NCBI GenBank assembly: GCA_964654285.1
Contig: CAZZJC010000025.1
Span: 1,046 to 65,045, forward strand
Length of the DNA: 64,000 nt
Reading direction: 5' to 3'
DNA from: an uncultured Candidatus Kuenenia sp.
Lineage (GTDB): Bacteria > Planctomycetota > UBA11346
Each line of letters starts with the position of its first letter. The stretch's first letter is position 1. Under the pieces are notes generated by a model. It worked only from the letters and a program-made list of their open reading frames with translations, did not search any database and had not been told where the DNA came from. Position numbers and translations under genes: made by a program. Below are positions 167 to 19,121 of the stretch, one piece after another.

Positions 167-1231
167 ATGACCATCGCCCGCACCAAACTCCTGGATGAGA
201 ACCGTCCGACCTGGGTGCATTGCACCTCCCGGTGCGTGCGGCGGGCGTTCCTGGCGGGCGGGAAGTATGAGCACCGCAAGGCGTGGGTGGCGGAACGGAT
301 GGAAATGCTGGCGAAATGCTTTGCGGTGGAGGTTGCCGGATATGCGGTGATGTCGAACCACCTGCATCTGATCGTGCGCATGGATCCGGCGGCGGTGCAG
401 GCGTGGCCGGCGTTGGAGGTGGCTCGGCGGTGGTTGTCGGTGTATCCGCGCAAGTACCTCAAAGATGGCACGGCGCAGCTGCCCAGCGACGCGGAGATCG
501 CGATGCTGGCCAGCAATGCCTTCAAGGTGGCGTTGTGGCGCAAGCGGCTGGCGAACCTCGGCTGGTTCATGAAGGCGCTCAAGGAACCATTGGCCCGGCG
601 GGCGAATCGCGAAGACGCGTGCAAGGGAACGTTCTGGGAAGGGCGCTTCCATTCGGTGCCGCTGCTGGATCAGCCGGCCCTGATCGCGGCGATGGTGTAT
701 GTCGATCTGAATCCGGTGCGGGCGAAGATGGCGGATCGGCCGGAGACGTCGGATTTCACGGCGGGGCAGCGTCGCATCGTAGCGCGCAACCGCCATGCGG
801 CGGCAACCAGGATCGTCGAGCGTGAACCGGTGAAAGCGGCGGCGCTGCTGGCCAAGGCCGGATTGAATGAGGGTGCCCGCCATGCCGAGGACGGTCTGTG
901 GTTGTGTCCGCTCGCACGCTGCCAGGCGGGAGAGCCGCTGTCGAACCAGCGGATCACCGTCGATGACTACCTGACGCTGCTGGATGCGACCGGGAGGCTG
1001 ATCAAGGCCGGCAAGCGCGGCGCGATCCCGCCTGAACTCGCTCCGATCCTGGCCCGGCTCGACCTGTCGGTGGAATCCTGGCTCGCGACGATGCTGGGCT
1101 GGCGGATGTTCGGATTCAGTTCGGCGCTGGGCCACGCCGCGACGCGATCAGCCGAAGCCGCCCGGCGCGGTTTGCAGTGGATCCGCAACCGGTGCCCGCT
1201 GTTCGCCAAGCGGGACGAAGTTGCAGCATAG
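167..1231 (+). CDS. IS200/IS605-superfamily Y1 (HUH) transposase, RAYT-like
   Basis: 354-aa ORF. HUH motif (VMSNHLHLIVRM) and catalytic-Tyr region (AAMVYVDLNPVRAKMA). Low-GC leader at about 60-166. Confidence 0.8.
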   Translation: MTIARTKLLDENRPTWVHCTSRCVRRAFLAGGKYEHRKAWVAERMEMLAKCFAVEVAGYAVMSNHLHLIVRMDPAAVQAWPALEVARRWLSVYPRKYLKDGTAQLPSDAEIAMLASNAFKVALWRKRLANLGWFMKALKEPLARRANREDACKGTFWEGRFHSVPLLDQPALIAAMVYVDLNPVRAKMADRPETSDFTAGQRRIVARNRHAAATRIVEREPVKAAALLAKAGLNEGARHAEDGLWLCPLARCQAGEPLSNQRITVDDYLTLLDATGRLIKAGKRGAIPPELAPILARLDLSVESWLATMLGWRMFGFSSALGHAATRSAEAARRGLQWIRNRCPLFAKRDEVAA

Positions 1232-1393: not shown

Positions 1394-1704
1394 GCGCCCA
1401 TTGCCCGGTCCCAGGCTTTTCGCTGCGCGCATGCAGTTCACAAGTGCGCAGCCGGTTCGGCGCGACGCGCGCCTCACCAGGGCTCCGCGTCATCCGCGCG
1501 GCTGACGCCGTGCGTCAGGCGGCACCGACATGGATGACCAGACATTTCAGGGCATGCATGTTGGTCACCTGTCTTCTTCTGTTCCTCCGGTCCCAGGTTC
1601 CCCTTTCATCCCTGTTCCATTGAGTTTTCCAGAGCCATTCTTCGCGCCTTCGGTGCTGCCCCCAGCATCCGCCCTCGTCACGCCCGGCCCAGGCGGTCCG
1701 GTAT

Positions 1705-1774
1705 GCGGTGCTACCTCGCTCGCTCAGGCAGGTTGCCGCTCGGCTCGCCTGTTCGGGGACGGAGTTGCCCGCTC
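1705..1774. repeat. Copy 2 of a diverged ~70-nt direct repeat
   Basis: See 1322-1393. Same orientation, 383 nt downstream of copy 1. Confidence 0.5.
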
Positions 1775-1951
1775 CATGCTTGGGCCGATCCGAGGCTTGT
1801 CGTAGGCGCCTGGTGCAGTGCGGTGAGCACGCCCCGGCATTGGCCCCTTGGCCATGCCGGGTTTTCCCTGCGGCGAACCAGCAAGCCGGGACCAGCCGGT
1901 GGTTGCCGACGCCGGTTCGGCTGCGGATGCTGGCGGAGGAAGGATGCTGGC

Positions 1952-2644
1952 ATGGAAAAGCTGCGTACCCCGTTCCTGATCATCGCGCTCGGGTGCTGCC
2001 TGGCGGTGGTGGGGGCCGAACTGGCGTCGCCCCTGCTGCTGGGGCTGGATGCTGCCAAGGGGCAGACTCCGCCCGGTGTCGGCATCGGTGCGCTCGCCTT
2101 CCTCGATGTCCTGCTGCTGTTCGTCACCCTGCTCTGCGCGCTGCCCCTGATCCTGCCCGAAAGCATCCACGCCAAGCTGCAGGGCGTCGCGACCCTGGTG
2201 GTCGCCATCCTGGTGATCCTGGCCGGGATCGTCGCGATCTTCGTCTTCCTCGCGAAACTGCTGCTGATGATCGGCCTGCTGCTCGCCATCCCATTCGGCA
2301 CCATCGCCTACTTCATCATGTTCGGGGACTTCGCCACCGGTTCGGCGCAGGCGGTGCTGGGCGGCATCTACGGGGCGAAGCTCGCCTTCTGCGTCTGCCT
2401 GGTCCTGGCGCACCAGCGGTTCCTGCAGAACAAGGGGCTGGTGCTGCTCACGCTCTGCTCGTTATTGGGCAACCTGATCGTCGGCTTCCTGCATGGCCTG
2501 GTACCCGGCTTCCTGGTCAGCATCACCGACGCCATCGCGGCCATCGTGGTGGTGATCATCGCCATCATCTGGGCCATCCTGCTCGCGATCGGCAGCCTGC
2601 CGGCGATCCTCAAGGCTGTGAACGTCAGCAAGAACGTGGGCTGA
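1952..2644 (+). CDS. Polytopic membrane protein, unknown function
   Basis: 230 aa from ATG 1952, preceded by GGAGGAAGG. About six hydrophobic helices. The Arg/Gly-rich upstream part of the 313-aa ORF is not credited. Confidence 0.6.
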   Translation: MEKLRTPFLIIALGCCLAVVGAELASPLLLGLDAAKGQTPPGVGIGALAFLDVLLLFVTLLCALPLILPESIHAKLQGVATLVVAILVILAGIVAIFVFLAKLLLMIGLLLAIPFGTIAYFIMFGDFATGSAQAVLGGIYGAKLAFCVCLVLAHQRFLQNKGLVLLTLCSLLGNLIVGFLHGLVPGFLVSITDAIAAIVVVIIAIIWAILLAIGSLPAILKAVNVSKNVG

Positions 2645-3175: not shown

Positions 3176-4108
3176 CTATTCGATCTTCAGCGTCAGGGCC
3201 GGGCCGGTGGCATTCAGGGTGACGGTTCCGCCACCTTCGTAGACGACCAGGGAATAGCGCTGGGAACCCTGGTCGCGGCGATGGGCGTCGCGGTCGGGGA
3301 AGATGGCGACCGGTTCAGGTGGGGACTTGGCCTTGTCAGGCAGATCGGCCACGAAGGGGGGCAGCATCCGCCAGGTCACCTGGGCGAGGAATTCCTGGGG
3401 AGGGGCGCCCGGGGGCAGGTTTTTCGCCGGTGCCGGAGCGGTGGCAGGTGAGATCAGGTTGAAAGTCAGACGGCGCGAGGTCTTCCCCGGTTCGGGGGCG
3501 ATGCGCAGGGTGACGGCCTGCTTGGGCTTGTCCTGGTCGGGGAAGGTGAATTTCCGCTTGGCGGTATCCAGGTTCGCCCCATCGACGGTGATCTGCTTGA
3601 GGTCGAAGCCGGGCTGGTTGCCGGGAAACTGGAGGTCCACCGTCACCTCGGAGCGGATGGTGCTCAGGGTCGCGGTTCCTCCGGCGCTGGGGAAGGCGAG
3701 TTGCGTGCGCTTGCCTGGGCGGAGATCTTCAGCCGTGCCATCGGGGCGGGCAATCTGCGCCACGACGGCAGTCTCGTCGGCCCCTGCCGTGCTGACCCCG
3801 AGGCTGAGGGTGCGGGTGCGCGCGGGTTTCGCCGCGTCGGGCGCGACCCGCAGGGTCACCACGTTGCCGGGCAGGACGAAGGTGCGCTTGCCGGTGTCCA
3901 GGGTGGCGCCGTCGACGGTGATCTGCTTCAGATCGAATCCGGGCTGGGTCCAGGCCAGGGCGCCATCGATCGCGCCCATGAAGGCCGGCGGTTCGTAGCT
4001 CTCGCCGGCGGCCGGTTTCTTGGCGTCGTGGTTGCGGCTGCCCAGGTACAGGCTGGCGCCCCAGGCGAGGACGAGCAGCACCAGGATGACGATCACCGGC
4101 TTGGGCAT
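3176..4108 (-). CDS. Signal-anchored protein with an internally duplicated module (last large gene of the CIS operon)
   Basis: 310 aa. N-terminal hydrophobic anchor (VIVILVLLVLAWGASLYL). Module QPGFDLKQITVDGAxLDTxKRxF...TLRxAP occurs twice. Start is 12 nt after the stop of the preceding gene. Confidence 0.65.
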   Translation of the reverse strand: MPKPVIVILVLLVLAWGASLYLGSRNHDAKKPAAGESYEPPAFMGAIDGALAWTQPGFDLKQITVDGATLDTGKRTFVLPGNVVTLRVAPDAAKPARTRTLSLGVSTAGADETAVVAQIARPDGTAEDLRPGKRTQLAFPSAGGTATLSTIRSEVTVDLQFPGNQPGFDLKQITVDGANLDTAKRKFTFPDQDKPKQAVTLRIAPEPGKTSRRLTFNLISPATAPAPAKNLPPGAPPQEFLAQVTWRMLPPFVADLPDKAKSPPEPVAIFPDRDAHRRDQGSQRYSLVVYEGGGTVTLNATGPALTLKIE

Positions 4109-4120
4109 GCGGGGCTCGGG

Positions 4121-5164
4121 CTATTTCTTCTGGGGCTGGATCGGAACCGCCACCGGCTGGTCCATGCGCCGGATGGTGCCCTCGGCCACGCCCTGCTGGA
4201 AGGTGCCCATCACCGCCTGGCGTTCGATGGACGACAATTCCCTGGTCAGGCGGCGGTTCACCGTGAGTTTGACCAGCGATTCCTTGTCGACCAGGGTGCC
4301 GGCCGCAGGCACCTGGCCGAGGATGACCCCGTCGGCGATCTTGGGATTGCCGGTGGTGGCGATCGCATAGCGCAGCTGGGACTTCTGCATCTCTGCGTCG
4401 GCTTCCCGCAACGGCCTGCCGGTCAGCGTCGGCACCTTGATCTTGATGTCAGGCGTGCCGACGGGCGGCAGGCCAGGACGCTGGGCGATGATCAGGTTCA
4501 CCAGCTCGCCGGCCTCGACCGTCGCTTCGGCGGCCGGATCCTGGCTGAGGACGGTCTCGTCGTTGTGCGTGGTGTCGGGCTTGTAGTTGATGCTGCCCAC
4601 GCGCAGGGCCGAGGAGCGGATGCGGGTTTCTGCCTCGCTCAACGCCAGGCCCTCCAGCTTCGGCATGGCGAGCTTGGGCGGCGGGGGTGGCGGCGGCGGC
4701 TCCTGCATGGCGAGGATGATCGCGACGGCTCCGCCGACCACGATGATCGCGCCGATCAGGCTGAAGATGATCCAGGCCGGGAAGGGCGGCTTCACCTGCG
4801 CCTCGGGCACGGTCACGCTCAAGGATGGGCTGCGCGCGACATCGCCGTCGGGATTCGCGGTGTTGAGGGCGAGGACGTTGAAGCGGTAGGTGCCCGGAGC
4901 CGGCCGCTGCGCGGCGGAGACGCGCAGCCGGTAGGTGACGCTGTCATTGGTCCGGATGTCGAGTTCGGGCGCCTGGCTGGGCAGCTCGCGGCCGTCCTCG
5001 CTGAGCAGCCGCGCGGTCAGGCCCGGCGTCCCGCCTTCGATCAGGGTGCGCGCGGTCTGGGTGAAGCCGCTGCCGTTGCCGACGCGGATCTCGAACTCCG
5101 CCGTGAGGTCGGGGCCGAGGATGCGGTTGTCCGAGGAGGCGCTGACGGTGAAGGAGGTGGGCAT
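4121..5164 (-). CDS. CIS-associated bitopic membrane protein: Ig-like (CARDB-like) N-domain, TM helix, 2 PASTA repeats
   Basis: 347 aa with no signal peptide. N-domain ends ...PGTYRFNVLALN.... TM helix is WIIFSLIGAIIVVGGAVAIILA, followed by a poly-Pro run. Two PASTA-type repeats (MPKLEGLALSEAETRI...VLSQDPAA and VPTLTGRPLREADAEM...ILGQVPAAGT). Confidence 0.8.
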   Translation of the reverse strand: MPTSFTVSASSDNRILGPDLTAEFEIRVGNGSGFTQTARTLIEGGTPGLTARLLSEDGRELPSQAPELDIRTNDSVTYRLRVSAAQRPAPGTYRFNVLALNTANPDGDVARSPSLSVTVPEAQVKPPFPAWIIFSLIGAIIVVGGAVAIILAMQEPPPPPPPPKLAMPKLEGLALSEAETRIRSSALRVGSINYKPDTTHNDETVLSQDPAAEATVEAGELVNLIIAQRPGLPPVGTPDIKIKVPTLTGRPLREADAEMQKSQLRYAIATTGNPKIADGVILGQVPAAGTLVDKESLVKLTVNRRLTRELSSIERQAVMGTFQQGVAEGTIRRMDQPVAVPIQPQKK

Positions 5165-5227: not shown

Positions 5228-7360
5228 CTAGCGGGAGAGGAACCGGATCAACTGGTCCTGGTTCACCCGCTCGATCGGCAGCGCCTGCTCCTGGGGTTGG
5301 CCGTTCCTGAGCGTGTACCGGATCAGCAGTTGCGGCATGTAGATGGGGGGACTCCGACGCAAATCCAGGAATCTTCCATTGCGCAGCTCGAACACGCCGG
5401 TTTCGGTGAGATCGCGTTCCGTCGCGGGCCTGTGATCAGGGGCGGGCCTGCCGGGATGGCCCCGCATGCCGCCGCGTTCGATGAGGGCGAGGATCCGCAG
5501 GTCGTTGTTGAGCGCGAAGCCCTTCTGCTTCCAGATGGCGAAATCAGCCTGGGACAGGGTGAGCGATTCCTTGGTCGAAACCACGTAGCCGTAGAAATGC
5601 GGCAGCCAGCTGCCCACGGGCATCACCTTGATGGTCGTCAGGCCCTCCAGCCGGCCGAGGTCGACGCGGGCGCTGGTGGTGAGTCGATCCGCCGTCCACG
5701 AACCGGTGACGGTGGCGAAGGCGTTGGTGGACTTCAGCGCCCCCTTCACCAGCACCTTGCAGGGCCGGCTCTCGGCGGCGGTGAACAGGGCATAGAGGTG
5801 GTAGGTTCCGGTCTCAACCTTCACGCTGAACTCGTGCGCGGTGCCGCCGAGGACGGAGATCGGCGCCTCGGTGACAGGAATGGGTGGTTGCGCAGTCGCG
5901 ATGAGCTCGCAGGCCTTGATCGGGATGTCCGGTGCCTGGCCGGCGAGGGTCAGCACGATCTTGTCGCTCGCCGCGACGCGGGCCTTCGCGGCCGGCTTCT
6001 GCTCGATCACCGTGCCCGGCGGACTGCCGCTCGCCTGCTCCTGGATGGTGATGTATTCCGGCCCCCAGCCGAGTTCATCCAGCCTGGCCAGGGCCTGCTG
6101 ACGGCTCTTTCCGGTCAGGTCGGGCATGGCGGTCGCCAGGGTGAGGTTGACCAGTCTCGCATCCGGGATCGGAGCGCCCGGCAGGGGGGTCTGGCTGACC
6201 ACCAGATCCGGATCGGCGTCGGACAGTTCGTAGCTGACCTTGCCCGGTTTCAGCTCGGCGGCGGCCAGGCTCGGGGCCACGGCGGCCAGGGGCGCCCCGA
6301 TCACGTTGGGCACTTTGCGCACCACGGTCAGGTTGATCCGTTGGCCGGTGGCTACCACCTGGCGGGGAGCCGGATCCTGATCCGCCACGGTGTTGTTGTC
6401 GCCCAGCGGCGCGTATTTGTAGTCGATGGACCCCTTGGCCAGACCGGCGTCCTGGATCTGCTCCAGCGCCGCGTCGAGGGGCAGGTTGATCAGGCGCGGC
6501 ATGAGGGAATTCGCGGCCACCTTGAGGGCGATGAGCTTGTCGGTCGGCACCCGCGCCCCGGCGGGCGGATCCTGGCTCAGGACCAGGTTCTTGTTCCGGC
6601 TCGGGTCGGGCACCTCGGTGCTCGAGATGTGATCCTCGCGCACGCCGAGCTGCACGAGCAGCCGTTGCGCGTCGCGCAGGGGCAATGCGACCACGCTGGG
6701 CATGGGGCGGGCGAGGATCAGATCGATGGTGCGGGTCGGGGGCAGCGCCGCCCCGGCGGCGGGATTCTGGCCCACCACGGCGTCGGAATCCGCATCCGAC
6801 AACTGGTAGGTGACCGTCCCGAGCCGCAGATGCGCGGCCGCCAGCCTGCTGCTGGCGGTGCTGAAGGGGGATCCGACCAGGCTCGGCACCGTGCGCGACT
6901 GGACGGCGAGGATGAGCGCGGTGGCTCCGCCGAGGACGATCAGGGCCGCCACGGCGGCGAAGATCATCCATGGCTTGAGCGGCATGGGCTGGCTGAGCTG
7001 GCCCACCACCACGCTCAGGGACTGGCTGTGCGCCACGTCGGCATTGGGATTCACCGTGTTCACGGCGAGGACGCTGAACCGGTAGGTGCCGGCTGGCGGC
7101 CGCTGGCGGGCGGCGAGGCGCAGGCGGTAGACGACCTCCTCGTTGGCCCGGATGTCGACCTCGGGGGTCTGGCTCGCCAATGGCGAACCATCGGCGGCGA
7201 GCAGCTGGGCATCGAGTCCCGGGGTGGCGCTCTCGATCAGCGTGCGGGCGGTCTGGGTGAAGCCGCTGGTGTTGGCGATCCGCACCTGGAACTCGGCCGA
7301 CAGATCCGGCCCGAGGGCGATGCTGACGGCGGGGGTGGTGACGGTGAAGGACGTGGGCAT
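5228..7360 (-). CDS. CIS-associated bitopic membrane protein: Ig-like N-domain, TM helix, 5 PASTA repeats, beta-rich CBM-like C-domain
   Basis: 710 aa. N-domain is 77/119 identical (hand alignment) to that of 4121-5164. Five repeats of the type VPxLxG...A...L...L..G.V......V..Q.P.aG. C-terminal ~240 aa contains GTYHLYALFTAAESRPCKVLVKG. Confidence 0.85.
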   Translation of the reverse strand: MPTSFTVTTPAVSIALGPDLSAEFQVRIANTSGFTQTARTLIESATPGLDAQLLAADGSPLASQTPEVDIRANEEVVYRLRLAARQRPPAGTYRFSVLAVNTVNPNADVAHSQSLSVVVGQLSQPMPLKPWMIFAAVAALIVLGGATALILAVQSRTVPSLVGSPFSTASSRLAAAHLRLGTVTYQLSDADSDAVVGQNPAAGAALPPTRTIDLILARPMPSVVALPLRDAQRLLVQLGVREDHISSTEVPDPSRNKNLVLSQDPPAGARVPTDKLIALKVAANSLMPRLINLPLDAALEQIQDAGLAKGSIDYKYAPLGDNNTVADQDPAPRQVVATGQRINLTVVRKVPNVIGAPLAAVAPSLAAAELKPGKVSYELSDADPDLVVSQTPLPGAPIPDARLVNLTLATAMPDLTGKSRQQALARLDELGWGPEYITIQEQASGSPPGTVIEQKPAAKARVAASDKIVLTLAGQAPDIPIKACELIATAQPPIPVTEAPISVLGGTAHEFSVKVETGTYHLYALFTAAESRPCKVLVKGALKSTNAFATVTGSWTADRLTTSARVDLGRLEGLTTIKVMPVGSWLPHFYGYVVSTKESLTLSQADFAIWKQKGFALNNDLRILALIERGGMRGHPGRPAPDHRPATERDLTETGVFELRNGRFLDLRRSPPIYMPQLLIRYTLRNGQPQEQALPIERVNQDQLIRFLSR

Positions 7361-7370
7361 GGGTGCGCTG

Positions 7371-8117
7371 CTATTGGTTGAATTGCCGGGCCGGCGTCGG
7401 CTTGCGCGTGGGCGTCGTCTCGACCGGCTTCACCGGCGTCTTCTCGACCGCCGCCGGCTTGGCGGGGACGGCCTCGGGCCGCGACGCGGTTTCGTGCGGC
7501 GTCGCGGGCGTGCTGGCGGGTTCTGCCTTGGGCGGCTCTCTGCGCGCGGGTTCCGCCGCCGCCGGTTCGGATTTCGCCGGTTCCGGTCTGGCCGGCGCGG
7601 GTTTTTCCTCGCCTGGCGTCCTGGGCGATTCCTTGCTTTCAGGCTTGGCTGGTCCGGCCGGTTTGGCCGGTTCGGCCGGCCGGGTCAGGGCGAACCACAG
7701 CAGGGTGCTGGCGGTGGCGAGCATCAGCACCCCGAGCAGCACCAGCCACCACGGGAAGCCCGGCGGCGGGGGCGCGGCCTGATGCATGGCCGCGACGGTC
7801 ACGGTGATCTCGGGGCCGTTGATCGCCGGTCCGCCTCCGGTCGGGACGAGATCGAGGCGGAAGCGGTAGCCGCCGGCCGCGACCGTCGGCGGCACCGCGA
7901 CCGCGACCAGGCAGATCCCGGTGGTGCCGGCATCGAGCTGCACCGTCGGCGTGGCGGCGGCGAGGGCGCCGGCCAGTTCGCGGTCGAGGGCGACCGGGGT
8001 CGGCGTCACCTGGGCCGGCTCGCCGCCGCGATTGGTCAGGCTGAACACGACCCGCCCGCGCCGGGTGGCCGGATCGAGGTTCAGGCTGACGCTGGCGGTC
8101 TCGGCGAGGACGTTCAT
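7371..8117 (-). CDS. CIS-associated bitopic membrane protein: Ig-like N-domain, TM helix, Pro/Ala/Lys/Glu-rich tail
   Basis: 248 aa. N-domain has the same pattern (...SLTNRGGEPAQV...AAGGYRFRLDLV...). TM helix is WWLVLLGVLMLATASTLLWFAL. About 105 aa of PAKPE-type low complexity follows. 4-nt overlap with the upstream gene. Confidence 0.7.
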   Translation of the reverse strand: MNVLAETASVSLNLDPATRRGRVVFSLTNRGGEPAQVTPTPVALDRELAGALAAATPTVQLDAGTTGICLVAVAVPPTVAAGGYRFRLDLVPTGGGPAINGPEITVTVAAMHQAAPPPPGFPWWLVLLGVLMLATASTLLWFALTRPAEPAKPAGPAKPESKESPRTPGEEKPAPARPEPAKSEPAAAEPARREPPKAEPASTPATPHETASRPEAVPAKPAAVEKTPVKPVETTPTRKPTPARQFNQ

Positions 8118-8632
8118 GCGGCGGCGACCAGCTCGTGGGTGACGTGCGCCGGCTTGGCGAGTTCGATGACGGCCTCCATCAGGGGGCGCTGGCCGGCGCA
8201 GGCGGCGGGATGGCGGATGCAGAGGTGGTGCAGCCGGGGACGGCCATCGGCGCCGAGGTTCTCGGCGATGGCGAAGCCGTCGTGGCCGGTGGCGAGGCGG
8301 AGGAAGCGCAGCATGCCCGAGCGGGTTCCGCGCCAGCGCGCGAGGTCGTGGGCCTGGGCGACCAGTTCGCGCAGCCGGGCGGGATCGGTCACCGCGGCGC
8401 GGTTGCCCAGCGCGGGCAGGAAGCGCGCCAGGTCGACCCAGCGGGCGAGGAATGGGACGAACGATTCCGGGGCGCGACGGGGGTCGAGATATGCATCGAT
8501 GTCGGCCAGGATCCGCTCATCCTTGCGCATCAGTCCGGCCATGACCTCGACCAGGCCGTCGCTGATCGTACCCGGGGTCGCGGTCTGGCTGACCACGGCC
8601 GGCAGCAGCTGGAGGATCTGATCGCGGGTCAT
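8114..8632 (-). CDS. Phage tail protein I-like baseplate wedge protein (Afp12-type N-domain)
   Basis: 172 aa from ATG 8632 (ATGA overlap with the stop of 8629-9222). LLPAVV...DPRRAPESFVPFLARWVDL...ARWRGTRSGMLRFLRLATG matches the tail-protein-I signature. The 269-aa upstream extension is rejected. Confidence 0.8.
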   Translation of the reverse strand: MTRDQILQLLPAVVSQTATPGTISDGLVEVMAGLMRKDERILADIDAYLDPRRAPESFVPFLARWVDLARFLPALGNRAAVTDPARLRELVAQAHDLARWRGTRSGMLRFLRLATGHDGFAIAENLGADGRPRLHHLCIRHPAACAGQRPLMEAVIELAKPAHVTHELVAAA

Positions 8633-9222
8633 GGGGTCGGCCCTTGCGGCTCGTGCGGGGTTGCGGATGGGGCGCCGGAATAGGCTGAGAATTCCGAGTA
8701 TTTCTGCGATCGCCACCAGGCGAAGGCGGCCAGGCCGGCGACCGCGACCGCGGTGGCGAGCAGGACCAGTCCGGGCAGCCAGTCGACGGTGATCATCACC
8801 ACGATGGCCGCGATCGCGAGCAGGGCGGCGCTGTACGACGCCCAGACCCAGGCCGGTCGCACCGGCCAGATCGAACCGGATGCGGCGACCACCAGGGTGA
8901 GGGCCAGGGGCGGGCTGACCCATTCGTTCGGATTGTCGACCCCGACCGCGCGGATCTCACAGGTGTAGGTGCCGGGGGCGAGCTGCTGCGGCAGGTCGAT
9001 GCCCAGCGGCAGGCTGCGGCTGGCGCCGGGATCGAGGATGAACTCTTCACCCGCCAGGCTGAGCCCGCCCGGCGCCAGCGGCGGCAGCGGCCGGAGGTCG
9101 AGGCGCGTGCGCAGCGCGTCGCGGCCATCGTTGGCCACCTGCACCTGCATCTGGCCGCGGCGCAGCCCGGTGAGGGTGATGGAGGTCGAACCTGCGCTCA
9201 GGCGATAGGCGGCAAAAGGCAT
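8629..9222 (-). CDS. CIS-associated membrane protein: Ig-like N-domain plus two-helix hairpin anchor
   Basis: 197 aa. N-domain QVQVANDGRDAL...APGTYTCEIRAVGVDNP has the same pattern as the three downstream paralogues. Two hydrophobic helices. Encoded between the baseplate J and tail protein I genes. Confidence 0.7.
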   Translation of the reverse strand: MPFAAYRLSAGSTSITLTGLRRGQMQVQVANDGRDALRTRLDLRPLPPLAPGGLSLAGEEFILDPGASRSLPLGIDLPQQLAPGTYTCEIRAVGVDNPNEWVSPPLALTLVVAASGSIWPVRPAWVWASYSAALLAIAAIVVMITVDWLPGLVLLATAVAVAGLAAFAWWRSQKYSEFSAYSGAPSATPHEPQGPTP

Positions 9223-9291
9223 GGGGGAGGAAAGTAGGTCCGGGTCGGGCGGGTGGCAATGGTCGACGCGGCAGGCGGTGGCCAGGCGGGT

Positions 9292-12066
9292 TCAGGATTC
9301 CTCGGTGACATCGATGCGGTGGTATCCGGCGCAGAACAGCCAGGTCGGCGGCAGCGGCAGCTTGTCGAGGTAGGTGCGCTGCGAGCAGGCCGAGAAGCGC
9401 AGGCCCTCGCTGGCGCGGAACACCCCTTGCGCGCCTCCGGCCAGCAGGTGCGTCCCGCTGTCGTCGGCGGCGATCGTCTCGACCGGCAGGTGCGTGCCCT
9501 GTTCCGACGTGCTGCGCAGCGGCAGGCCGCAGTCCTGGGCCGAGACGACCCAGGCCGCGTCGGGCTGGCTGAAATCGAAGGCCAGCACGCCCGACCGGTA
9601 CGAGGCGGCATAGACCCGGTTGCCGGCAAAGGTCAGCGCCTTGCAGGTGCCGCCGTTCCAGCCCTTGCTCGCCCAGCGCCAGGCCGGCGGCGGCGGGTTG
9701 CTGCGATCCGCCGGCACGGCGGCGAGCGGCAGTTCGCCGACCAGGGTGCCCTTGCCGGGATCGTTGCCGATCGATGCCAGGCCCGCCCACAGGTGGTAGC
9801 GGTTGCCGGTGGCCTGGACTTCCAGCACGCGGATGTCGAGGTCTTTCAGGCCGATGTGGGTGAAGGAGCCGGTGCGCCCGCCCTGGTAGGAGAGGTAGAC
9901 CCCGCCCAGGGCCTCGGCCGCCACCGCGACCGCGAGCACCCCGCCGTGGCTGGCGGTGGCGACGGCGTAGAAGCGCTGATCCGGCTTCTGGGCGTCGACC
10001 AGGACGAGTTCCGGGATCGCATCGGCGACCGGGGTGAGCGAGATCAGCCCGTGGTCGGAGGCGAGGAAGAGCGTCGGCACACCATCGCGCACGGCCCAGG
10101 CGCCGTCTTCCAGGATGAACGAGGTGCGGCAGGGAGCGCTCCAGGTCTGACCGTAATCCTTGGAGAAATACACGCGGCCGGCGCGGCTTGGGGCGGGCGG
10201 CGCAGGCGGCTTCGCAGCGGCATCCGGCTTCGCTGGCGTGTCCGGCTTCGTCGGGGTCAGGGCCGGAGCCGGCTTGGCGGGATCCGCTTTCGCCGCGTCG
10301 GCCTTGGCGGACTCCAGCCGGGCCGATTCCGCCTTCGCCGGATCGGCCGGCGCGACCGGGGCGGGCACGGTGACGCTGATCGCGGCGACCAGACCGGGCA
10401 CCTGGGGATGCGGGAAGATGCGCAGGATGCGTTCGCCGGGGAAGGTCGTCGCGAGTTCCCAGCCGGCGCCGTCGTTGACCGAGACGAACAGGCGTTCGCC
10501 GCTGCCAGCGTACCAGGTGTGCGGCTTGAAGGAATCCGCCGCCAGGGCGCCGACGTCGGCCGCCGGGGCCTGGTCGACCTCCAGCGCGATGCCCTCGACG
10601 TAGGCGACCCCGGGCACGGCCAGGATGGCGTCGTAGACCTGCGAGGCGCGCAGCGGCGCCCCGAAGTCGCGTCCGGGGGCGCCGTCGCGCGCGAGCGGAT
10701 CGAGGCGGCGGTCGATCGCCGCGCCGACCTTGGCGCGGATCGCATCCGCATCGGTGTGGCGGCGGGTGACCACCCGGGCCGCGACCGCGACCTGCTTGCA
10801 GGGCACCCAGGCGATGCGGATGGCCGAGCCCAGCGGCCGGCATTCGTCGAGCGCCCGCGTCACCGCGTCGAGGGCGGCGTCGGTCTGCAGCGCGGCGATC
10901 TCGGCCCGGGTCGGGCGGCGCGGCGGCCCGGCCGGCGGCCGCGGCACCAGCAGCACGTCGACCGTGCCCGGGTCGCAGCCGGGATAGACCTGCGAACGGG
11001 TGTAGGCCTTGGCCCGGCTGACCAGGTCGCGGCAGCGGTTGACCGCGATCAGCTCGTAGTCGAGCGCGGTCACCGCGCGGCGCAGGGAATAGAACTCGAA
11101 CGGGCCGCGTTCGCTGGCGTTTTCCAGGGATTCCGCCTCGCGTCCGCCGGTCGCCGGCTGCGGGTTGGCGACCGCCAGGCCGCCGACCCCGGGCAGGGGC
11201 CGGACCAGGCGGGTCAGGGATCCGCCGGGCAGGTTGCCGCTCGGGCCGCCGCCGGCGTGGTACCAGAGGCGGATCCGGCGGCCTTCGCCCGGATAGGCCC
11301 CGAGCGCGCTCGCGCGTTCGGCGAGGACGCCGGGATCGGCGGGATCGCGCAGCCGGGCCGAGCCGGGGAAGTACACCCGGCCGAGCTGCCGGTCGACGAT
11401 GCAGGCGCAGGTGTCGGCGCCGAGGTCGGTGAAGTCGTCGACCTCGCGCCAGAGGCGGTAGGTGACGCCGTCCTCCTCGCGCAGGGCCATGCCCTCGCGC
11501 AGCTCCTCGCGCGCGATCTCGACCCCGATCGCGAACGGATCGTCGGCGCCCAGGCGGGCGACGATCGGGGCGCGCTTGGCCTCGACGACCTGGCCCGGCT
11601 TGCCGGTGCCCGTGCCGGCGGCCTCGCTGATCGCGGTGGCGTGGATGGCGCGGATCGTGACCCGGTCGGATCCGGCCGGGATGGTCGCGGCGGTCAGGGT
11701 GGTGAACACCGCCGGCTGGCCGCCGCTCTCGGCGCGGTTGGCGGCGACCTCGGTCCCGGCCGGGATGACCACCGCGGCCGGGGCCGGGGCGGCGAGGCTG
11801 AACACGAGGTCGACCCGCGCCGCCGAGGGCGGATGCAGGCGCAGGCCCAGGAGGCGCAGGAACTCGATGTAGGCCTTCTCCGGCAGCCGGTTGAGCCGGT
11901 AGAGCATGGTCTCGGTCAGGTGCGCGAAGAGCTCGAGCAGCACCACCCCGGGATCCGAGGCCGAGTTCGCGCTCCAGGCGGTGCCGCGCTCGGCGAGGAT
12001 CCGGCGCGCTTCGGCCAGGAGCTGGTCGAAGGTGCGGTCATCGAGATTCGGGACGGGCAGGGACAT
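9292..12066 (-). CDS. Baseplate J-like protein (Afp11-type) fused to an Asp-box beta-propeller-like C-terminal region
   Basis: 924 aa. N-terminus (NLDDRTFDQLLAEARRIL...DPGVVLLELFAHLTETMLYRLNRLPEKAYIEFLRLLG) is typical of phage-tail-region baseplate assembly proteins. C-terminal ~400 aa has Asp-box-like motifs (SVNDGAGW, SKDYGQTW) and a PA-rich insert. Confidence 0.9.
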   Translation of the reverse strand: MSLPVPNLDDRTFDQLLAEARRILAERGTAWSANSASDPGVVLLELFAHLTETMLYRLNRLPEKAYIEFLRLLGLRLHPPSAARVDLVFSLAAPAPAAVVIPAGTEVAANRAESGGQPAVFTTLTAATIPAGSDRVTIRAIHATAISEAAGTGTGKPGQVVEAKRAPIVARLGADDPFAIGVEIAREELREGMALREEDGVTYRLWREVDDFTDLGADTCACIVDRQLGRVYFPGSARLRDPADPGVLAERASALGAYPGEGRRIRLWYHAGGGPSGNLPGGSLTRLVRPLPGVGGLAVANPQPATGGREAESLENASERGPFEFYSLRRAVTALDYELIAVNRCRDLVSRAKAYTRSQVYPGCDPGTVDVLLVPRPPAGPPRRPTRAEIAALQTDAALDAVTRALDECRPLGSAIRIAWVPCKQVAVAARVVTRRHTDADAIRAKVGAAIDRRLDPLARDGAPGRDFGAPLRASQVYDAILAVPGVAYVEGIALEVDQAPAADVGALAADSFKPHTWYAGSGERLFVSVNDGAGWELATTFPGERILRIFPHPQVPGLVAAISVTVPAPVAPADPAKAESARLESAKADAAKADPAKPAPALTPTKPDTPAKPDAAAKPPAPPAPSRAGRVYFSKDYGQTWSAPCRTSFILEDGAWAVRDGVPTLFLASDHGLISLTPVADAIPELVLVDAQKPDQRFYAVATASHGGVLAVAVAAEALGGVYLSYQGGRTGSFTHIGLKDLDIRVLEVQATGNRYHLWAGLASIGNDPGKGTLVGELPLAAVPADRSNPPPPAWRWASKGWNGGTCKALTFAGNRVYAASYRSGVLAFDFSQPDAAWVVSAQDCGLPLRSTSEQGTHLPVETIAADDSGTHLLAGGAQGVFRASEGLRFSACSQRTYLDKLPLPPTWLFCAGYHRIDVTEES

Positions 12067-12114
12067 GGTCGGATCCGTTCGCAGGGGCAGGGCGGGGGCG
12101 GCGGCGGGGGCGGA

Positions 12115-12543
12115 CTAGCGACGGGCTTCGGGCAGGTCGCCGCCGAGATCGACGGCGAAGCGCAGGGCGTGGGTGGAGGCGTTCGCGCGCACCCGGTAGT
12201 CGAGCTGGATCGCGAGCGCCTCGGGGTGGGCGGGATCGGCGCCGGCATCGAGGGCGATGATCTCGACCCGGGGCTCCCAGCGTTCGACCGCCTGGCGGAT
12301 GAAGTGCATCGCCAGCCCGGCGGTGGTGTCGTCGTTGGGCAGGAATGCGAGCCGGCGCAGGTCGCAGCCGTAGTCGGGCCGCATCACCCGTTCGCCCGGC
12401 GTGGTCGACAGCAGCATGAGCAGCGCCTGGCGGATCTCGGCCTCGCCGTCGATCAGCGCCACCGCGCCGAGCGCGCTGGTCTGCGGCCCGCCGGCATGCG
12501 CCGCAGCATCGAGACCCGGAAAGGCGAAGCGCCAGGCGGTCAT
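12115..12543 (-). CDS. GPW/gp25-family baseplate protein
   Basis: 142 aa from ATG 12543. IRQALLMLLSTTPGERVMRPDYGCDL is the gp25 signature. The upstream extension of the 195-aa ORF runs through the repeat element and is rejected. Confidence 0.9.
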   Translation of the reverse strand: MTAWRFAFPGLDAAAHAGGPQTSALGAVALIDGEAEIRQALLMLLSTTPGERVMRPDYGCDLRRLAFLPNDDTTAGLAMHFIRQAVERWEPRVEIIALDAGADPAHPEALAIQLDYRVRANASTHALRFAVDLGGDLPEARR

Positions 12544-12630
12544 GGCAGATAACTCGACACACGGCTCGTTTGCGATCCTAGACCAAACCATGGATCCGTC
12601 TTCAGAACAACGTCTCCCAAGGATGAAATG

Positions 12631-12732
12631 AAAAATCGCAAGTGTGCCCCAGATGCAAGGCGGGAGGAAGGAGTGTGGCAGCGCCACATGACTGACGACC
12701 AACGCCGCAGATGGGGTGCAATTGCGATTTTT
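12631..12732 (-). repeat. 102-nt palindromic A5...T5 element, copy A (MITE-like, possibly a bidirectional terminator-like hairpin)
   Basis: Reverse complement differs from 30796-30897 at 4 of 102 positions (hand alignment). Its ~22-nt termini are inverted repeats of each other. Strand label only records orientation relative to copy B. Confidence 0.85.
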
Positions 12733-12736
12733 CCGA

Positions 12737-13093
12737 TCACTTCTGGCATACGAACCCCTGTCCTGCGTGCTTCACGGTGTATTTCACGGTTCCCGGCGGA
12801 GTGCCGTCGGTCAGGCCGGTCAGGGTGTCGAGGCAGACCGCCTTGCCGTCGACGAAGACCAGGTCGGACCAGCCGCCGGTGACGTTCACCACCGCGGTGC
12901 AGGGCTTGATCGTCATGCCGACGTTGGGGCAGCCGGCGATCGGGCGGCCGATCGGCTGGGTCTGGACCACCACCGCGCGGCCGTCGATGAAGACGAACGA
13001 CTGGCCCGGGATCGGGGACTGGCCGGGGACGATGCCGACGATGCCCATGACATGGGCGCAGCAGACGAGGGCGGAATCGGTGACCACGAGCAT
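12737..13093 (-). CDS. PAAR-like (DUF4280-type) spike-tip protein
   Basis: 118 aa directly downstream of the spike gene (6-nt gap). Cys pattern ...AGCPNVGMTIKPCTAVVNVTGGW...GKAVCLD...HAGQ fits PAAR-like/DUF4280 proteins. Confidence 0.7.
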   Translation of the reverse strand: MLVVTDSALVCCAHVMGIVGIVPGQSPIPGQSFVFIDGRAVVVQTQPIGRPIAGCPNVGMTIKPCTAVVNVTGGWSDLVFVDGKAVCLDTLTGLTDGTPPGTVKYTVKHAGQGFVCQK

Positions 13094-13099
13094 GGCGGC

Positions 13100-14563
13100 T
13101 CAGCCCTTCTCGAAGTCGATGCGCGCGGCGCGCAAGGTGAGGGTCGATCCGGGGGCGTCGAGCAGCAGGTTGCCGGCGGCGTGCAGGCGGACGCCGTCGC
13201 CGGCCAGGGAGAGACGGTGCCCGTCGCGGTGTTCGAGCAGCACCTGGCCGCCTTCGTCGTCGAACCACAGGCGGTGGCCGCCGGGGGCGATCCAGCCGGC
13301 CCGGCGCACGCGGCTGCCGGCCACGGCGGTCTCGGGCTGGCCCGCTTCGCTCCAGAGTCCGCCCAGCACCACGGCGCGGGCGGGATCGCCGCCCAGCGGC
13401 AGGACGAGGACGTGGTCGCCGACCTCGGGCGTCGCCACCAGGCCGCGGCCGGGGCCGGCGACCGGGCAGAGCACCTGCAGCCAGTCGCTCTCGGCCTCAC
13501 CCAGGGCGTCGTAGGTCACGCGCACGCGGGCGAGCCCGTCCGGGTCGGCGACATCGCTCACCCGGCCGATGAAGGCGGTGGCCGGCCGGCCGGGCGCCGG
13601 CGCATTCGGCAGGGCGGTGTCGAAGCGGACGCGGTAGCCGCCGGCGTCGATGGTGTGCTCGGCGTGCATCACCGTCCAGGTGCCGCCGAGATCGGCGGGC
13701 ACCCCGCGCAGGTCGAGCCGTGCCGCCGGGGCGATGCGGGTGTCGCCCACCGCGGTGCCCCAGAGGGTCGCCGCCGCCGCCGCGCGGCGGTCGAGCGCGG
13801 CCTGGGCCAGGGCCTCGGCCTGATCCGAGTCCTCGACCACCAGTCCGGCCAGGGCGAGCGCGGTCGTGGCCGCCGGTTCGCCGGCGATGGCGCGCGGCAG
13901 GCGCGGGCTGGCGGCGCTGCCGGCACGGGTCACGGCGCGGAACGGATCCCAGCCGGTGGCCGAGGCGCTGGTCGCGCCGGCGGCGGGATGGGTCTCGGCG
14001 TCGAGTTCGATCAGCCCTTCGCCCAGGGTGAGGGGGACGGGGTCGCCGTGGCCGCCGGGGCCGACCAGGCGCAGGGTGTCGCCGTCGCCGACGAGCCACA
14101 GGCCGACACGCGCGGCGACCTCGGTCAGCACCGCGAAATCGCTCTCGCCGCGCTGGACGATGCGGGCCCAGCGCGGACCCGGTTCGGCGGTGGCGGCGCT
14201 GAGGCCGTGCGCGCCGGCGAGGCGCTCGGCGAGGTCGCCGGCGGTCATCGCGGCATAGGCGGTGGTCTGGCAACGCCCGCGCAGGCGCTGCAGGGCGTCG
14301 TAGGCGCGCAGGCGGCACTGCCCGGCCTGGCCGGGGCGCAGGCGCCGGTGCACGGCGGCCAGGGTGCCGTTGAAGAGCGGCTTCGCCTGCCCAGCCACGC
14401 CCACCCGCACCTGCGCCTCGGCGCCGGCCTCGACCGCATCGGTGAAGACCAGTTCGCACTGCGCGGGCAGGCCCAGGCACTGCACGACGCGGACCGATTC
14501 CAGCCGCGCGGTGGCCGGGACGCCGTCGAGCTCGACCGTGACCAGCGGGGCCGGCAGGGTCAT
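13100..14563 (-). CDS. gpD/VgrG-like central spike (late control D plus gp5 OB-fold)
   Basis: 487 aa from ATG 14563 (ATGA overlap). FIGRVSDVADPDGLARVRVTYDALGEAESDWLQVLCPVAGPGRGLVATPEVGDHVLV is the classic VgrG/gp5 OB-fold stretch. No C-terminal effector extension. Confidence 0.9.
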   Translation of the reverse strand: MTLPAPLVTVELDGVPATARLESVRVVQCLGLPAQCELVFTDAVEAGAEAQVRVGVAGQAKPLFNGTLAAVHRRLRPGQAGQCRLRAYDALQRLRGRCQTTAYAAMTAGDLAERLAGAHGLSAATAEPGPRWARIVQRGESDFAVLTEVAARVGLWLVGDGDTLRLVGPGGHGDPVPLTLGEGLIELDAETHPAAGATSASATGWDPFRAVTRAGSAASPRLPRAIAGEPAATTALALAGLVVEDSDQAEALAQAALDRRAAAAATLWGTAVGDTRIAPAARLDLRGVPADLGGTWTVMHAEHTIDAGGYRVRFDTALPNAPAPGRPATAFIGRVSDVADPDGLARVRVTYDALGEAESDWLQVLCPVAGPGRGLVATPEVGDHVLVLPLGGDPARAVVLGGLWSEAGQPETAVAGSRVRRAGWIAPGGHRLWFDDEGGQVLLEHRDGHRLSLAGDGVRLHAAGNLLLDAPGSTLTLRAARIDFEKG

Positions 14564-15369
14564 GCGGTCTCCAGCAGGGCGCGGGCGACCGCCTCGGGCG
14601 CGGGCAGGCGCAGCACGGTGCCGCCGGGCAGGGCCTGCGGATCGGCGAGGTCGTTGGCCGCCGCGATGAGCCGCCAGTAGGCGGGGTCGCCGTAGAGCCG
14701 CGCCGCGAGCAGGTCGAGCCGCTCGCTGTCGCCCAGGCGCACGGTGGCGGCGGGTTCCTGGCTGAGCGCCGCGCCGACCGCGACCGCGGCGGCGGGCTCG
14801 GGGGCGGGCGCCACCGGGGCGGCGGTGTTCGGCACCAGGACGCGGAGGAAGCGCAGGCGCAGCCAGGATCGGCGCGGCGCGCCATCGGGAGCGAAACGCT
14901 CCAGCCGCTGCGCCACCGCGGCGACCACCCCGGGCAGGTTCCAGCGTTTGCCCCAGATCACCCGCACCAGCGGCAGTTCGACCCGGCCGGCCTCGTTGCG
15001 TGCGTGCTCGGCGAGGGCGAAGAGGGGGGCGGTGAGCTGGCGCACGTCGACGATCGGGCGGTCGTCGACGCGGGTCGGATCGGGGTCGGACATGCGCCGC
15101 CGTACCGTGTCCTGGTTCCAGCGTTCGTCCGCGACGGTCGCATGCGCGCCGGCGAGGTCGACATCGAAGAGCAGATCGAGCTGCCATTCCGTGCGTCCGC
15201 CTCCGGTCGCCGCGAGCGGCGCGTCGGCGGCGTCGCCCGGTTCAGCGGCCGAGATGCCCGGCTCGCGTGTCGCGAGGCCCGCCCAGCGGCGGATCTCCAG
15301 CGACTCCGGGTTGAGCAGGCACGGGATGCGGCTGCCGGTCGATTCGACCAGGATGATCACGCGTTCCAT
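14560..15369 (-). CDS. Tube-initiator-like protein with C-terminal LysM (gpX/Afp7-type)
   Basis: 269 aa. N-terminus (ILVESTGSRIPCLLNPESLEIRR) is typical of CIS tube-fold proteins. C-terminal LysM (VRLGDSERLDLLAARLYGDPAYWRLIAAANDLADPQALPGGTVLRLP). Confidence 0.85.
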   Translation of the reverse strand: MERVIILVESTGSRIPCLLNPESLEIRRWAGLATREPGISAAEPGDAADAPLAATGGGRTEWQLDLLFDVDLAGAHATVADERWNQDTVRRRMSDPDPTRVDDRPIVDVRQLTAPLFALAEHARNEAGRVELPLVRVIWGKRWNLPGVVAAVAQRLERFAPDGAPRRSWLRLRFLRVLVPNTAAPVAPAPEPAAAVAVGAALSQEPAATVRLGDSERLDLLAARLYGDPAYWRLIAAANDLADPQALPGGTVLRLPAPEAVARALLETA

Positions 15370-16568: not shown

Positions 16569-16572
16569 CGGC

Positions 16573-17028
16573 TCAGGCGCTGGCGCTGCCTTCGCTCACC
16601 TCGCGTTCGAGGTGGTCGAAGGCGATGCTCACGCTTTCGATCGCGACGGTGTTGGCGAGGCCATCCATCGGCTGGGCGCGCCAGCGGCTCGGCCAGGCCT
16701 CGTACAGGTTCCAGCGCACCTCGCGGCCGCTGCGCTGCGGATCGAGCAGGGCGATGGTCAGGTTCTGCTTGTAGCTGTCGGCGGACAGGGCCGCCTCGAA
16801 CCAGCGCCAGAGGTCGAGCGAGGTCGAGACGCCGTACCACAGTTCGAGTTCGGCATAGTCGACCCGGCCGCGCAGCTTGCGCACATGTTCGGAGCCGCCT
16901 TCGCGGTAGGCGATCGGCTCGATCCGGGCTTCGAGCCCGGTGATCGAGGTGAAATAGCCCTTGGCCTCGTTGCCGATGCGCAGGGCGAAGTTGTAGGAAC
17001 GGAACGGTTCGTTGCGGGGATCGGGCAT
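16573..17028 (-). CDS. Contractile-tail tube protein (T4 gp19 / Afp1-type)
   Basis: 151 aa. FRSYNFALRIGNEAKGYFTSITGLEARIEPIAYREGG is the conserved tube signature. Confidence 0.9.
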   Translation of the reverse strand: MPDPRNEPFRSYNFALRIGNEAKGYFTSITGLEARIEPIAYREGGSEHVRKLRGRVDYAELELWYGVSTSLDLWRWFEAALSADSYKQNLTIALLDPQRSGREVRWNLYEAWPSRWRAQPMDGLANTVAIESVSIAFDHLEREVSEGSASA

Positions 17029-17047
17029 GGGTGGCTTTCGTTGGGGA

Positions 17048-19084: not shown

Positions 19085-19105
19085 CGGGCGCTCGATTCGC
19101 TGGCG

Positions 19106-19121
19106 TGGCAATATCGTTGCA
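19106..19121 (+). promoter_or_regulatory. Sigma-54-type -24/-12 promoter-like motif
   Basis: TGGCAA-N5-TTGCA with consensus spacing (TGGCAC-N5-TTGCW). Lies in the divergent intergenic region, about 215 nt upstream of ATG 19339. Single-motif call that could be chance. Confidence 0.3.

Follow-up and report, generated by a model that had tools for sequence, protein, structure and literature searches.

A stretch of 64,000 nucleotides from an uncultured Candidatus Kuenenia sp. (contig CAZZJC010000025.1; the whole stretch is hereafter called the window) carries a contractile injection system (CIS) operon in which the tail-fibre slot, downstream of the baseplate genes, encodes proteins composed of an immunoglobulin (Ig)-like N-terminal head, a single transmembrane (TM) helix and a variable ectodomain that contains PASTA repeats in two cases. 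On balance, we favour the reading that the products of 7371-8117, 5228-7360 and 4121-5164, and more remotely that of 8629-9222, are bitopic inner-membrane adaptors coupling the CIS to the membrane and the wall. Coupling of the CIS to the envelope had been proposed in an earlier note made from the sequence alone, and it is supported here by the bitopic anatomy of the proteins, their membership of the baseplate operon and a position conserved across many phyla. The genes in question and their parts are as follows.

8629-9222, minus strand: divergent fourth head paralog of 197 amino acids (aa) with almost no ectodomain (Ig-head hidden Markov model (HMM), E=2.9e-19)
7371-8117, minus strand: 248-aa protein with an Ig-like head, a TM helix at ~125-143 and a Pro/Ala/Lys-rich tail without a folded ectodomain (Ig-head HMM, E=1.6e-28)
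6986-7360, minus strand: Ig-like beta-sandwich head of the 710-aa protein, residues 1-125 (AlphaFold2 (AF2) predicted local distance difference test score (pLDDT) 95.2, ten beta strands)
6902-6970, minus strand: single TM helix of the 710-aa protein, residues ~131-153 (Kyte-Doolittle 19-residue mean 2.59; AF2 helix)
5942-6895, minus strand: five tandem PASTA repeats of the 710-aa protein, residues 156-473 (Pfam, E=1e-52), putatively periplasmic
5231-5941, minus strand: orphan C-terminal cassette of the 710-aa protein, residues 474-710, 237 aa (no Pfam match, no homolog)
4121-5164, minus strand: 347-aa protein with an Ig-like head, a TM helix at ~132-150, a poly-Pro linker, two PASTA repeats and a short tail (Pfam, hydropathy)

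Genes in the window, which has a GC content of about 69%, were chosen by third-position GC. Both PASTA-bearing open reading frames (ORFs) exceeded the gathering threshold of PF03793 (23.2 bits), with five PASTA stretches in the 710-aa product of 5228-7360 (E=1e-52, 176.4 bits) and two in the 347-aa product of 4121-5164 (E=2.3e-17, 63.1 bits). These values are far beyond chance and uphold the five and two repeats counted in the earlier note. According to a locally built PASTA HMM, the repeats occupy residues 158-214, 220-279, 287-345, 350-407 and 412-471 of the 710-aa protein and residues 167-224 and 244-301 of the 347-aa protein. PASTA was the sole family above the Pfam threshold in either protein. 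Pfam gave no match to Pkinase in the 710-aa or 347-aa protein, and transpeptidase and penicillin-binding protein (PBP)-dimer families were absent from both ORFs at E<=1. The NCBIfam model NF033483 (PknB_PASTA_kin) scored 131.8 and 63.2 bits against a cut-off of 450 and aligned through its PASTA part alone (model positions 334-562/499), in agreement with the earlier statement that kinase and transpeptidase domains are lacking. The best solved-structure matches of the PASTA region were solution structures of PknB (2kui, E=6e-8).

The 710-aa, 347-aa and 248-aa proteins share a head of ~120 aa at the N-terminus followed by one TM helix. This architecture was overlooked in the earlier note, as were the tail-fibre-slot position of the genes and the structural nature of the LysM domain in the baseplate protein Cis7. 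An AF2 model of the 710-aa protein head, built with a 32-sequence multiple sequence alignment, is an all-beta Ig-like sandwich followed by a helix at residues 130-149 (pLDDT 95.2). The helix has the properties of a textbook TM segment: about 20 of its residues are hydrophobic, an aromatic belt (FPWW) is present and the N-flank is rich in lysine. No N-terminal signal peptide was found on the head of this protein. We infer a topology with the N-terminus inside and the C-terminus outside, because a folded 125-aa N-terminus without a signal peptide is joined to ectodomains of extracytoplasmic type.

Comparison among paralogs separates the two ends of these proteins. The heads of the 347-aa and 710-aa proteins are 59% identical. 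Across four loci with more than one paralog, including the two PASTA proteins of the window, the head is about 62-83% identical within a locus while the ectodomain is 13-33% identical. A conserved head and a divergent ectodomain fit the expectation for an attachment domain that has a single common partner and a distal part free to diversify. The fourth paralog (8629-9222) lies between the genes for the baseplate proteins Cis11 and Cis12 and is missing from most related loci; two adjacent hydrophobic segments are visible by eye in its product, of which a hydropathy scan scored one (137-155).

To place these proteins in a wider context, the head was used as a search profile. An exhaustive HMMER search returned 712 cluster representatives at E<=1e-3, and a word-indexed search for homologs of the aligned heads recovered nothing beyond the window and a sister locus. 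The family signature comprises an N-terminal beta-sandwich of ~120 aa with a GxYxF(R)L strand and an NPDEDY-like loop, followed by a TM helix that starts with (F)PWW. Exactly one TM helix, at median residue 126, was present in 142 of the 148 listed family members, and the three proteins of the window matched the family HMM at E=5e-37, 1e-38 and 3e-28. PASTA was the commonest ectodomain, present in 59 of the 140 members scanned with Pfam; others carried PD40, PKD, Big, CBM96, solute-binding (SBP) or thioredoxin domains, or nothing recognisable, and NPCBM_assoc/NEW3 matches in 11 of the 140 probably arise via the head. The occurrence of typical extracytoplasmic modules in the ectodomain position supports a C-terminus outside the cytoplasm. 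The combination of an Ig-like head, a TM helix and a variable ectodomain apparently defines a widespread and undescribed family of single-pass membrane proteins.

The association of this family with the CIS was examined from both directions. A set seeded with the baseplate comprised 38 Cis11 loci from species-representative genomes, of which 33 had enough downstream DNA. A head-family gene was located at most 4 kb downstream of Cis11 in 31 of these 33, typically right after the small Cis12 gene. The Cis11-seeded loci come from about 10 phyla, including Acidobacteriota, Proteobacteria, Desulfobacterota, Planctomycetota, Cyanobacteria, Chloroflexota, Verrucomicrobiota and Actinomycetota, with Nitrosomonas, Methylomonas, Halospina, Thioalkalivibrio and the actinomycete Actinopolymorpha among the genera. 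PASTA was found in 30 of the 36 head-family proteins of these loci, with one to four repeats where present, and the five repeats and extra domain of the window protein are at the top of the range among these relatives. The host of the window is itself a diderm, as the earlier note held, since a TonB-dependent receptor is encoded at 27769-29757. The same note had called PASTA domains uncommon in diderms; here they are no oddity of one genome and are the norm in this CIS lineage, cultured Nitrosomonas and Methylomonas among its members.

A metagenome scan seeded with the head motif yielded 63 informative loci. In 40 of them a P2_I, J or gp25 gene was located upstream on the same strand, often at 0-25 bp or within 0-100 bp, and many of the loci contained the whole operon in the same gene order. 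The remaining 23 showed no CIS genes, so the family is strongly enriched at CIS loci and not confined to them. In a search of 2.9 million viral contigs the head was essentially absent, with one weak partial match, which argues that it is not a phage fibre module.

Several loci outside the common pattern were also noted. Orphan Ig-TM(-PASTA) genes outside CIS loci (L078:11349-12773 and L109:8814-9992) adjoin an N-acetylmuramoyl-L-alanine amidase or a Ser/Thr kinase gene, and orphan members of the family may have wall-related roles unconnected to the CIS. A further orphan Ig-TM-PASTA gene adjoins a gene for a WD40-caspase (Peptidase_C14) protein (L051:6385-9462), and in the CIS locus of Nitrosomonas marina a TPR-CHAT protein of 969 aa (L027:15899-18808) is encoded ~1 kb beyond the adaptor genes; these caspase-like neighbours may reflect a link to cell death, or coincidence. 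One of the two related loci without an Ig-TM gene, from a member of the Bryobacteraceae (L023:13098-15746), has a different gene pair after Cis12. The first gene of this pair encodes a signal-peptide protein with two internal repeats, and the second encodes a protein with a signal peptide, a Pro/Lys-rich linker and an LPWW-type TM helix in mid-protein. The pair may represent an envelope adaptor of alternative or permuted design.

The sister locus (L120) has a gene order identical to that of the window operon and provides the closest view of how the 710-aa protein varies. Nucleotide identity between the two is ~82% (flanking DNA 81-83%) up to residue 473 of this protein and resumes at the next gene. 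In between, an unrelated segment of 98 aa (L120:11420-11716) replaces the 237-aa C-terminal segment of the window protein, with the breakpoint exactly after the fifth PASTA repeat. Residues 474-710 are, to judge from this comparison, a swappable orphan cassette. The cassette looks coding (GC at third positions 0.865) and has a GC content of 65.5%, compared with 70.2% for the rest of the gene. No homolog was found among 5.8 billion proteins, and no carbohydrate-binding module (CBM) or other Pfam family matched even at E<=10. The only model that covers it, a full-length AF2 prediction without an alignment, is unreliable (pLDDT 34). A CBM-like domain of ~240 aa had been proposed here in the earlier note, and profile searches had been suggested for PASTA and CBM families alike; the region exists and the PASTA repeats are borne out by PF03793, whereas the CBM reading was dropped in view of the missing homologs and families. 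The operon flanks differ between the window and the sister locus while the adaptor genes are present in both, so the adaptors move with the CIS.

The adaptor genes belong to a single CIS operon that occupies the minus strand from about 19150 to 3176. Pfam identified sheath, tube, VgrG-like spike, gp25, Baseplate_J and P2_I (Tail_P2_I) genes, all six in one minus-strand cluster at 8114-18307, which confirms the CIS context assigned earlier. The four envelope genes 3' of Cis11 and Cis12 overlap their neighbours or are separated from them by gaps of 10-63 bp, and no terminator-like site was found on the minus strand between 3176 and 8300. The other genes of the operon, in order of transcription, are listed below.

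18365-19150, minus strand: first gene of the operon, 261 aa, probable cap (Cis16/Pvc16-like); no Pfam match of its own, homologs at the same position in 16 related loci
17048-18307, minus strand: contractile sheath, Cis2 (Pfam Phage_sheath_1, Phage_sheath_1C)
16573-17028, minus strand: inner tube, Cis1 (Pfam Phage_T4_gp19, E=3.9e-27)
15357-16568, minus strand: 403-aa protein of unknown role (no Pfam match)
14560-15369, minus strand: tube-initiator/LysM protein, Cis7-like (Pfam CIS_tube, E=1.4e-6; Phage_tail_X, E=1.3e-4)
13100-14578, minus strand: VgrG-like spike, Cis8 (Pfam Phage_base_V, E=1.1e-21; Phage_GPD, E=2.1e-10); start approximate, set from the 492-aa ortholog in the sister locus
12737-13093, minus strand: conserved 118-aa protein between spike and gp25 (no Pfam match; same position in 38 loci)
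12115-12543, minus strand: gp25-like baseplate wedge, Cis9, 142 aa (Pfam GPW_gp25, E=3.2e-24; gene call in loci L001 and L120)
9292-12066, minus strand: Baseplate J-like protein, Cis11, 924 aa, with a long C-terminal extension (Pfam Baseplate_J, E=4.6e-15)
8114-8632, minus strand: Tail_P2_I-like baseplate protein, Cis12, 172 aa (Pfam Tail_P2_I, E=2.3e-6; gene call in locus L001)
3176-4108, minus strand: last gene of the operon, N-terminal TM/signal anchor and a tandemly duplicated domain of ~150 aa (sequence, homolog positions)

Comparison with solved structures relates this system to that of Streptomyces. The closest solved chains to the sheath were 8bky and 9gtp (E=3.8e-75), followed by 7b5h of Anabaena (1.8e-53). 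Entry 9GTP is the model of the S. coelicolor CIS, and its Cis11 chain (9gtp_1K) was matched by the window Cis11 at E=1.9e-57. Among the 38 relatives from species-representative genomes, the nearest Cis11 is only ~48% identical to that of the window. At 924 aa, the window Cis11 is longer than the S. coelicolor chain (652 aa). Its residues ~560-924 form an Ala/Pro/Lys-rich linker and then a C-terminal domain of ~290 aa with one Asp-box-like motif (SKDYGQTW). This extension might be a contact site for the adaptor heads.

The LysM domain at 14560-15369 had been pointed out in the earlier note. It is a structural LysM of the Cis7 type, a standard baseplate part, and therefore no evidence for wall binding; in the Anabaena CIS structure, the Cis7 LysM joins the tube to baseplate proteins (PMC8894136). 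The Nitrosomonas counterpart of the probable cap protein matches Pvc16_N (E=5e-7). A gene of similar size is found at the position of the 403-aa protein in the sister locus (431 aa) and in the Nitrosomonas locus L027 (478 aa). A PAAR-like or spike-plug role for the 118-aa protein is a guess. The last gene encodes a second envelope accessory that is conserved: in many related loci, a single-copy homolog of 170-190 aa adjoins the Ig-TM gene. The sole Pfam match of the window product is a sub-threshold one to UB2H, a PBP1b domain (E=0.003).

According to the favoured reading, the adaptors would occupy, in place of tail fibres, the corresponding slot of a compact CIS akin to that of Streptomyces. 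The N-terminal Ig-like head would stay in the cytoplasm and dock on the periphery of the baseplate (Cis11/Cis12), and the single TM helix would fix the baseplate at the cytoplasmic membrane. The ectodomain would extend into the periplasm, in the form of five PASTA repeats with a swappable tip, two PASTA repeats, or a Pro/Ala-rich spacer. PASTA may bind peptidoglycan or its precursors there, and the CIS would thereby be fastened to the cell wall and held in place on it, as the peptidoglycan-binding domains of TagL/TssL do for the T6SS (type VI secretion system). The contact between head and baseplate, the binding of PASTA to peptidoglycan and any effect on assembly or firing are predictions of this reading.

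A number of points weigh against it. Not all PASTA domains bind peptidoglycan, and we know of no diagnostic sequence motif for those that do. One paralog in the window and several relatives are without PASTA, and wall binding therefore cannot be the only role of the family. Searches of solved structures with head profiles gave no CIS chain, only chance or TM-only matches (integrin TM helix), and in a Foldseek comparison of the head model the top 50 hits were generic Ig-like, MG or MSP folds, again with no CIS chain. The flanks of the TM helix carry 1.96 K+R on the N side and 1.55 on the C side, which is weak evidence on topology. Among the 23 head-seeded loci without CIS genes, 5 have a full 10 kb of upstream sequence and unrelated neighbours. 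Furthermore, an exchanged tip at the C-terminus would be less typical in a wall anchor than in a receptor-binding fibre.

This last point leads to the reading that the proteins are true tail fibres of a released extracellular CIS (eCIS), whose PASTA repeats and variable tip bind the wall or surface of a target after lysis of the producer, with the head attached to the baseplate and the hydrophobic helix serving as a trimerisation or target-insertion element. The genes do occupy the fibre slot, and a conserved N-terminus, a variable distal part and a swapped C-terminal cassette are the classic pattern of receptor-binding proteins. In an unrelated CIS locus (L002:10001-13093 (P0004; also P0003)), the fibre slot, which follows gp25/J/P2_I and a Big_1 protein, is occupied by a protein of 1030 aa that lacks a TM helix and combines 10 PASTA repeats with a weak match to BW3TFN (tail-fibre-network) at its N-terminus. 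Arrays of PASTA are therefore also found in what seem to be soluble CIS fibres, and together with the window family this indicates that PASTA was recruited to CIS fibre slots at least twice. In the window family, however, the textbook TM helix is present exactly once in nearly all members, and a fibre inserted in the membrane would have to be extracted before it could leave with a released particle. Ectodomains of the solute-binding and thioredoxin types, like the Pro/Thr linkers, speak for proteins resident in the envelope, the Pfam scan of the operon genes showed no lysis cassette, and a catalogue of eCIS receptor-binding domains makes no mention of PASTA or transmembrane fibres (PMC12923769). 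We consider the fibre reading quite unlikely. A lysis cassette (holin-type) reading of the single-TM genes was rejected, as the 120-aa folded head, the PASTA arrays and the baseplate-linked conservation do not fit it. That the Ig-TM-PASTA proteins have a wall job of their own, in wall growth or division, and are merely co-inherited with CIS islands would accord with the roughly 37% of head-seeded loci that show no CIS genes, with neighbours that vary widely and with the amidase and kinase genes found beside one orphan member each. Such co-inheritance is very unlikely, because the position right after Cis12 is kept, often at 0-25 bp, in about 10 phyla with differing other flanks; even where flanks differ between the window and its sister locus, the adaptors still accompany the CIS, and the conservation of the head among within-locus paralogs also speaks against it.

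A role as sensor or checkpoint, in line with the trigger idea of the earlier note, overlaps with the favoured reading and differs from it solely in that coupling is conditional and the adaptors are no static tether. PASTA would detect muropeptides, lipid II or wall damage, and binding of the ligand would alter the oligomerisation of the adaptors, which would recruit free cytoplasmic CIS particles to the membrane and trigger contraction, with suicide, abortive infection or regulated lysis as the outcome. CisA (SCO4242), of the cytoplasmic CIS (type IId) of S. coelicolor, is needed for contraction and stress-induced death, has been proposed to act as a sensor via its periplasmic domain, and is absent from the purified particle (PMC12237407). 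By analogy, CisA makes a sensor or checkpoint role for the window adaptors conceivable, and the closest solved sheath and Cis11 belong to the same Streptomyces system. The PASTA region of PknB binds specific muropeptides and is required for PknB localisation (PMC3145798). Diverse sensor-like ectodomains occur in the family, including a solute-binding-protein domain as in CisA, and the caspase-like neighbours hint at a cell-death context, although these are two anecdotes. The well-folded head, near-identical among within-locus paralogs, fits a stable structural contact better than the disordered N-terminus of CisA does. The explicitly conditional version is regarded as a tentative possibility, and the reading as membrane and wall adaptors is retained as the preferred one.

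The remainder of the window is ordinary chromosome, with genes for complex I, purA, uppS, the TonB-dependent receptor and an ABC importer. Divergent from the operon start, 19105-22581 on the plus strand encodes a 1158-aa protein with a C-terminal ceramidase-family (PF05875) membrane domain and an unannotated N-terminal part of ~880 aa; as listed, this ORF and the first operon ORF overlap by ~45 bp, and one of the two starts is probably later. Beyond the operon end are a 354-aa ORF at 167-1231 (plus strand) with a sub-threshold match to an IS200-like Y1 transposase (E=1.8e-4) and, at 1703-2644 (plus strand), a gene for a very hydrophobic multi-TM protein. The sister locus has other genes beyond its operon end (ilvD, GH95). 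The transposase-like ORF near the operon end and the different genes in the sister locus suggest that the CIS cluster sits on a mobile or rearranged segment.

The encounter between a CIS and a membrane decides its role, whether as a released eCIS, a T6SS-like anchored device, a thylakoid-tied particle or a suicide-firing system. To date, the modes have each been ascribed to an adaptor specific to one lineage (Cis13, CisA, Hbor_38620), found one organism at a time. An Ig-like head and TM helix in the fibre slot would provide a sequence signature that predicts membrane coupling for a whole CIS clade, which includes cultured Nitrosomonas, Methylomonas, Halospina and Actinopolymorpha. These proteins would be the first such adaptors with an ectodomain of known ligand class, so that the signal read by the CIS becomes testable, and PASTA would gain a non-kinase, non-PBP setting that is common in diderms. 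No paper combining PASTA with contractile injection systems, eCIS or phage tail-like particles and baseplates was found in a search that left subscription literature mostly uncovered, and a paper on the Roseiflexus CIS says no more than that CisA homologs are absent. Adaptors in the membrane that determine how a CIS acts are a known kind; the window family and its PASTA ectodomain appear to be undescribed. A broader proposal, which we judge unlikely, is that the wall state read by PASTA decides where and when a CisA-type cytoplasmic CIS docks and fires, in an envelope-coupled class that spans phyla. If true, the system would be a wall-damage-gated suicide, abortive-infection or T6SS-like device in which PASTA reads the wall, from the periplasm in diderms or from the wall zone in monoderms, and paralogs with different ectodomains and swappable tips would supply several inputs to one machine.

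Among known systems, the haloarchaeal protein Hbor_38620 is a putative membrane anchor of a T6SS-like CIS that is kept with one CIS clade and has been proposed to set a membrane-anchored mode (PMC11566945). The likeness is that of a lineage-specific membrane protein accompanying one CIS clade; Hbor_38620 is archaeal, is encoded upstream of its cluster and has six TM helices, a cytoplasmic domain of ~150 residues and no wall-binding domain. The PknB/PrkC/Stk1 kinases and class B PBPs share with the window proteins the arrangement of tandem PASTA repeats after a single TM helix, whereas the window proteins are without a kinase or transpeptidase domain. With an Ig-like domain as the cytoplasmic part, any output must be of a kind other than phosphorylation.

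TagL of the T6SS is an inner-membrane protein with a periplasmic peptidoglycan-binding domain that is required for function (PMC13584744). TagL/TssL and the window proteins are alike in that a contractile machine would be tied to the wall via an inner-membrane protein, an analogy of function alone. TagL spans the membrane with three helices, contains an OmpA/Pal/MotB domain (PF00691) and docks on TssL of the TssJLM complex, whereas the window system has one TM helix, PASTA repeats and a phage-like baseplate. PF00691 had no Pfam match in the window PASTA proteins, and no TssJLM genes were seen among the operon genes scanned.

The nearest counterparts are found in two CIS of other bacteria. CisA is a bitopic protein whose N-terminus lies in the cytoplasm and whose C-terminal domain, beyond the one TM helix, is folded and extracytoplasmic; it has been proposed to bind Cis11 (PMC12237407). 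It occupies the same slot downstream of the baseplate genes, also has a single TM helix, and is part of the system that supplies the closest solved relatives of the window sheath and Cis11. For the window proteins, the same orientation of the termini is predicted from the missing signal peptide and the type of ectodomain. In CisA, a largely unstructured N-terminus of ~285 aa precedes a solute-binding-like ectodomain, in contrast to the Ig-like sandwich of ~120 aa and the PASTA repeats described here. Judged from domain content and the published description of CisA, with no direct comparison of the sequences made, homology to CisA is not evident, and the window system differs further in having three or four paralogs per locus and a diderm host.

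Cis13 (All3316) of the thylakoid-anchored CIS of Anabaena has an N-terminal baseplate-binding domain and a TM segment at aa 122-154, and deletion of this segment frees the particles (PMC8894136). Here, too, a gene in the fibre slot after Cis12 encodes a small N-terminal domain followed by a TM helix, at ~131-153, 132-150 and 125-143 in the window proteins. Cis13 has no described domain beyond the TM segment and inserts in thylakoids, whereas the window 710-aa protein has a large ectodomain that is presumably periplasmic. Homology between the two is not shown, as the head profiles and model match no CIS chain among solved structures. According to the Anabaena authors, the TM segment of Cis13 is found in filamentous cyanobacteria only (PMC8894136), whereas the window family, with its analogous design, occurs in many phyla.

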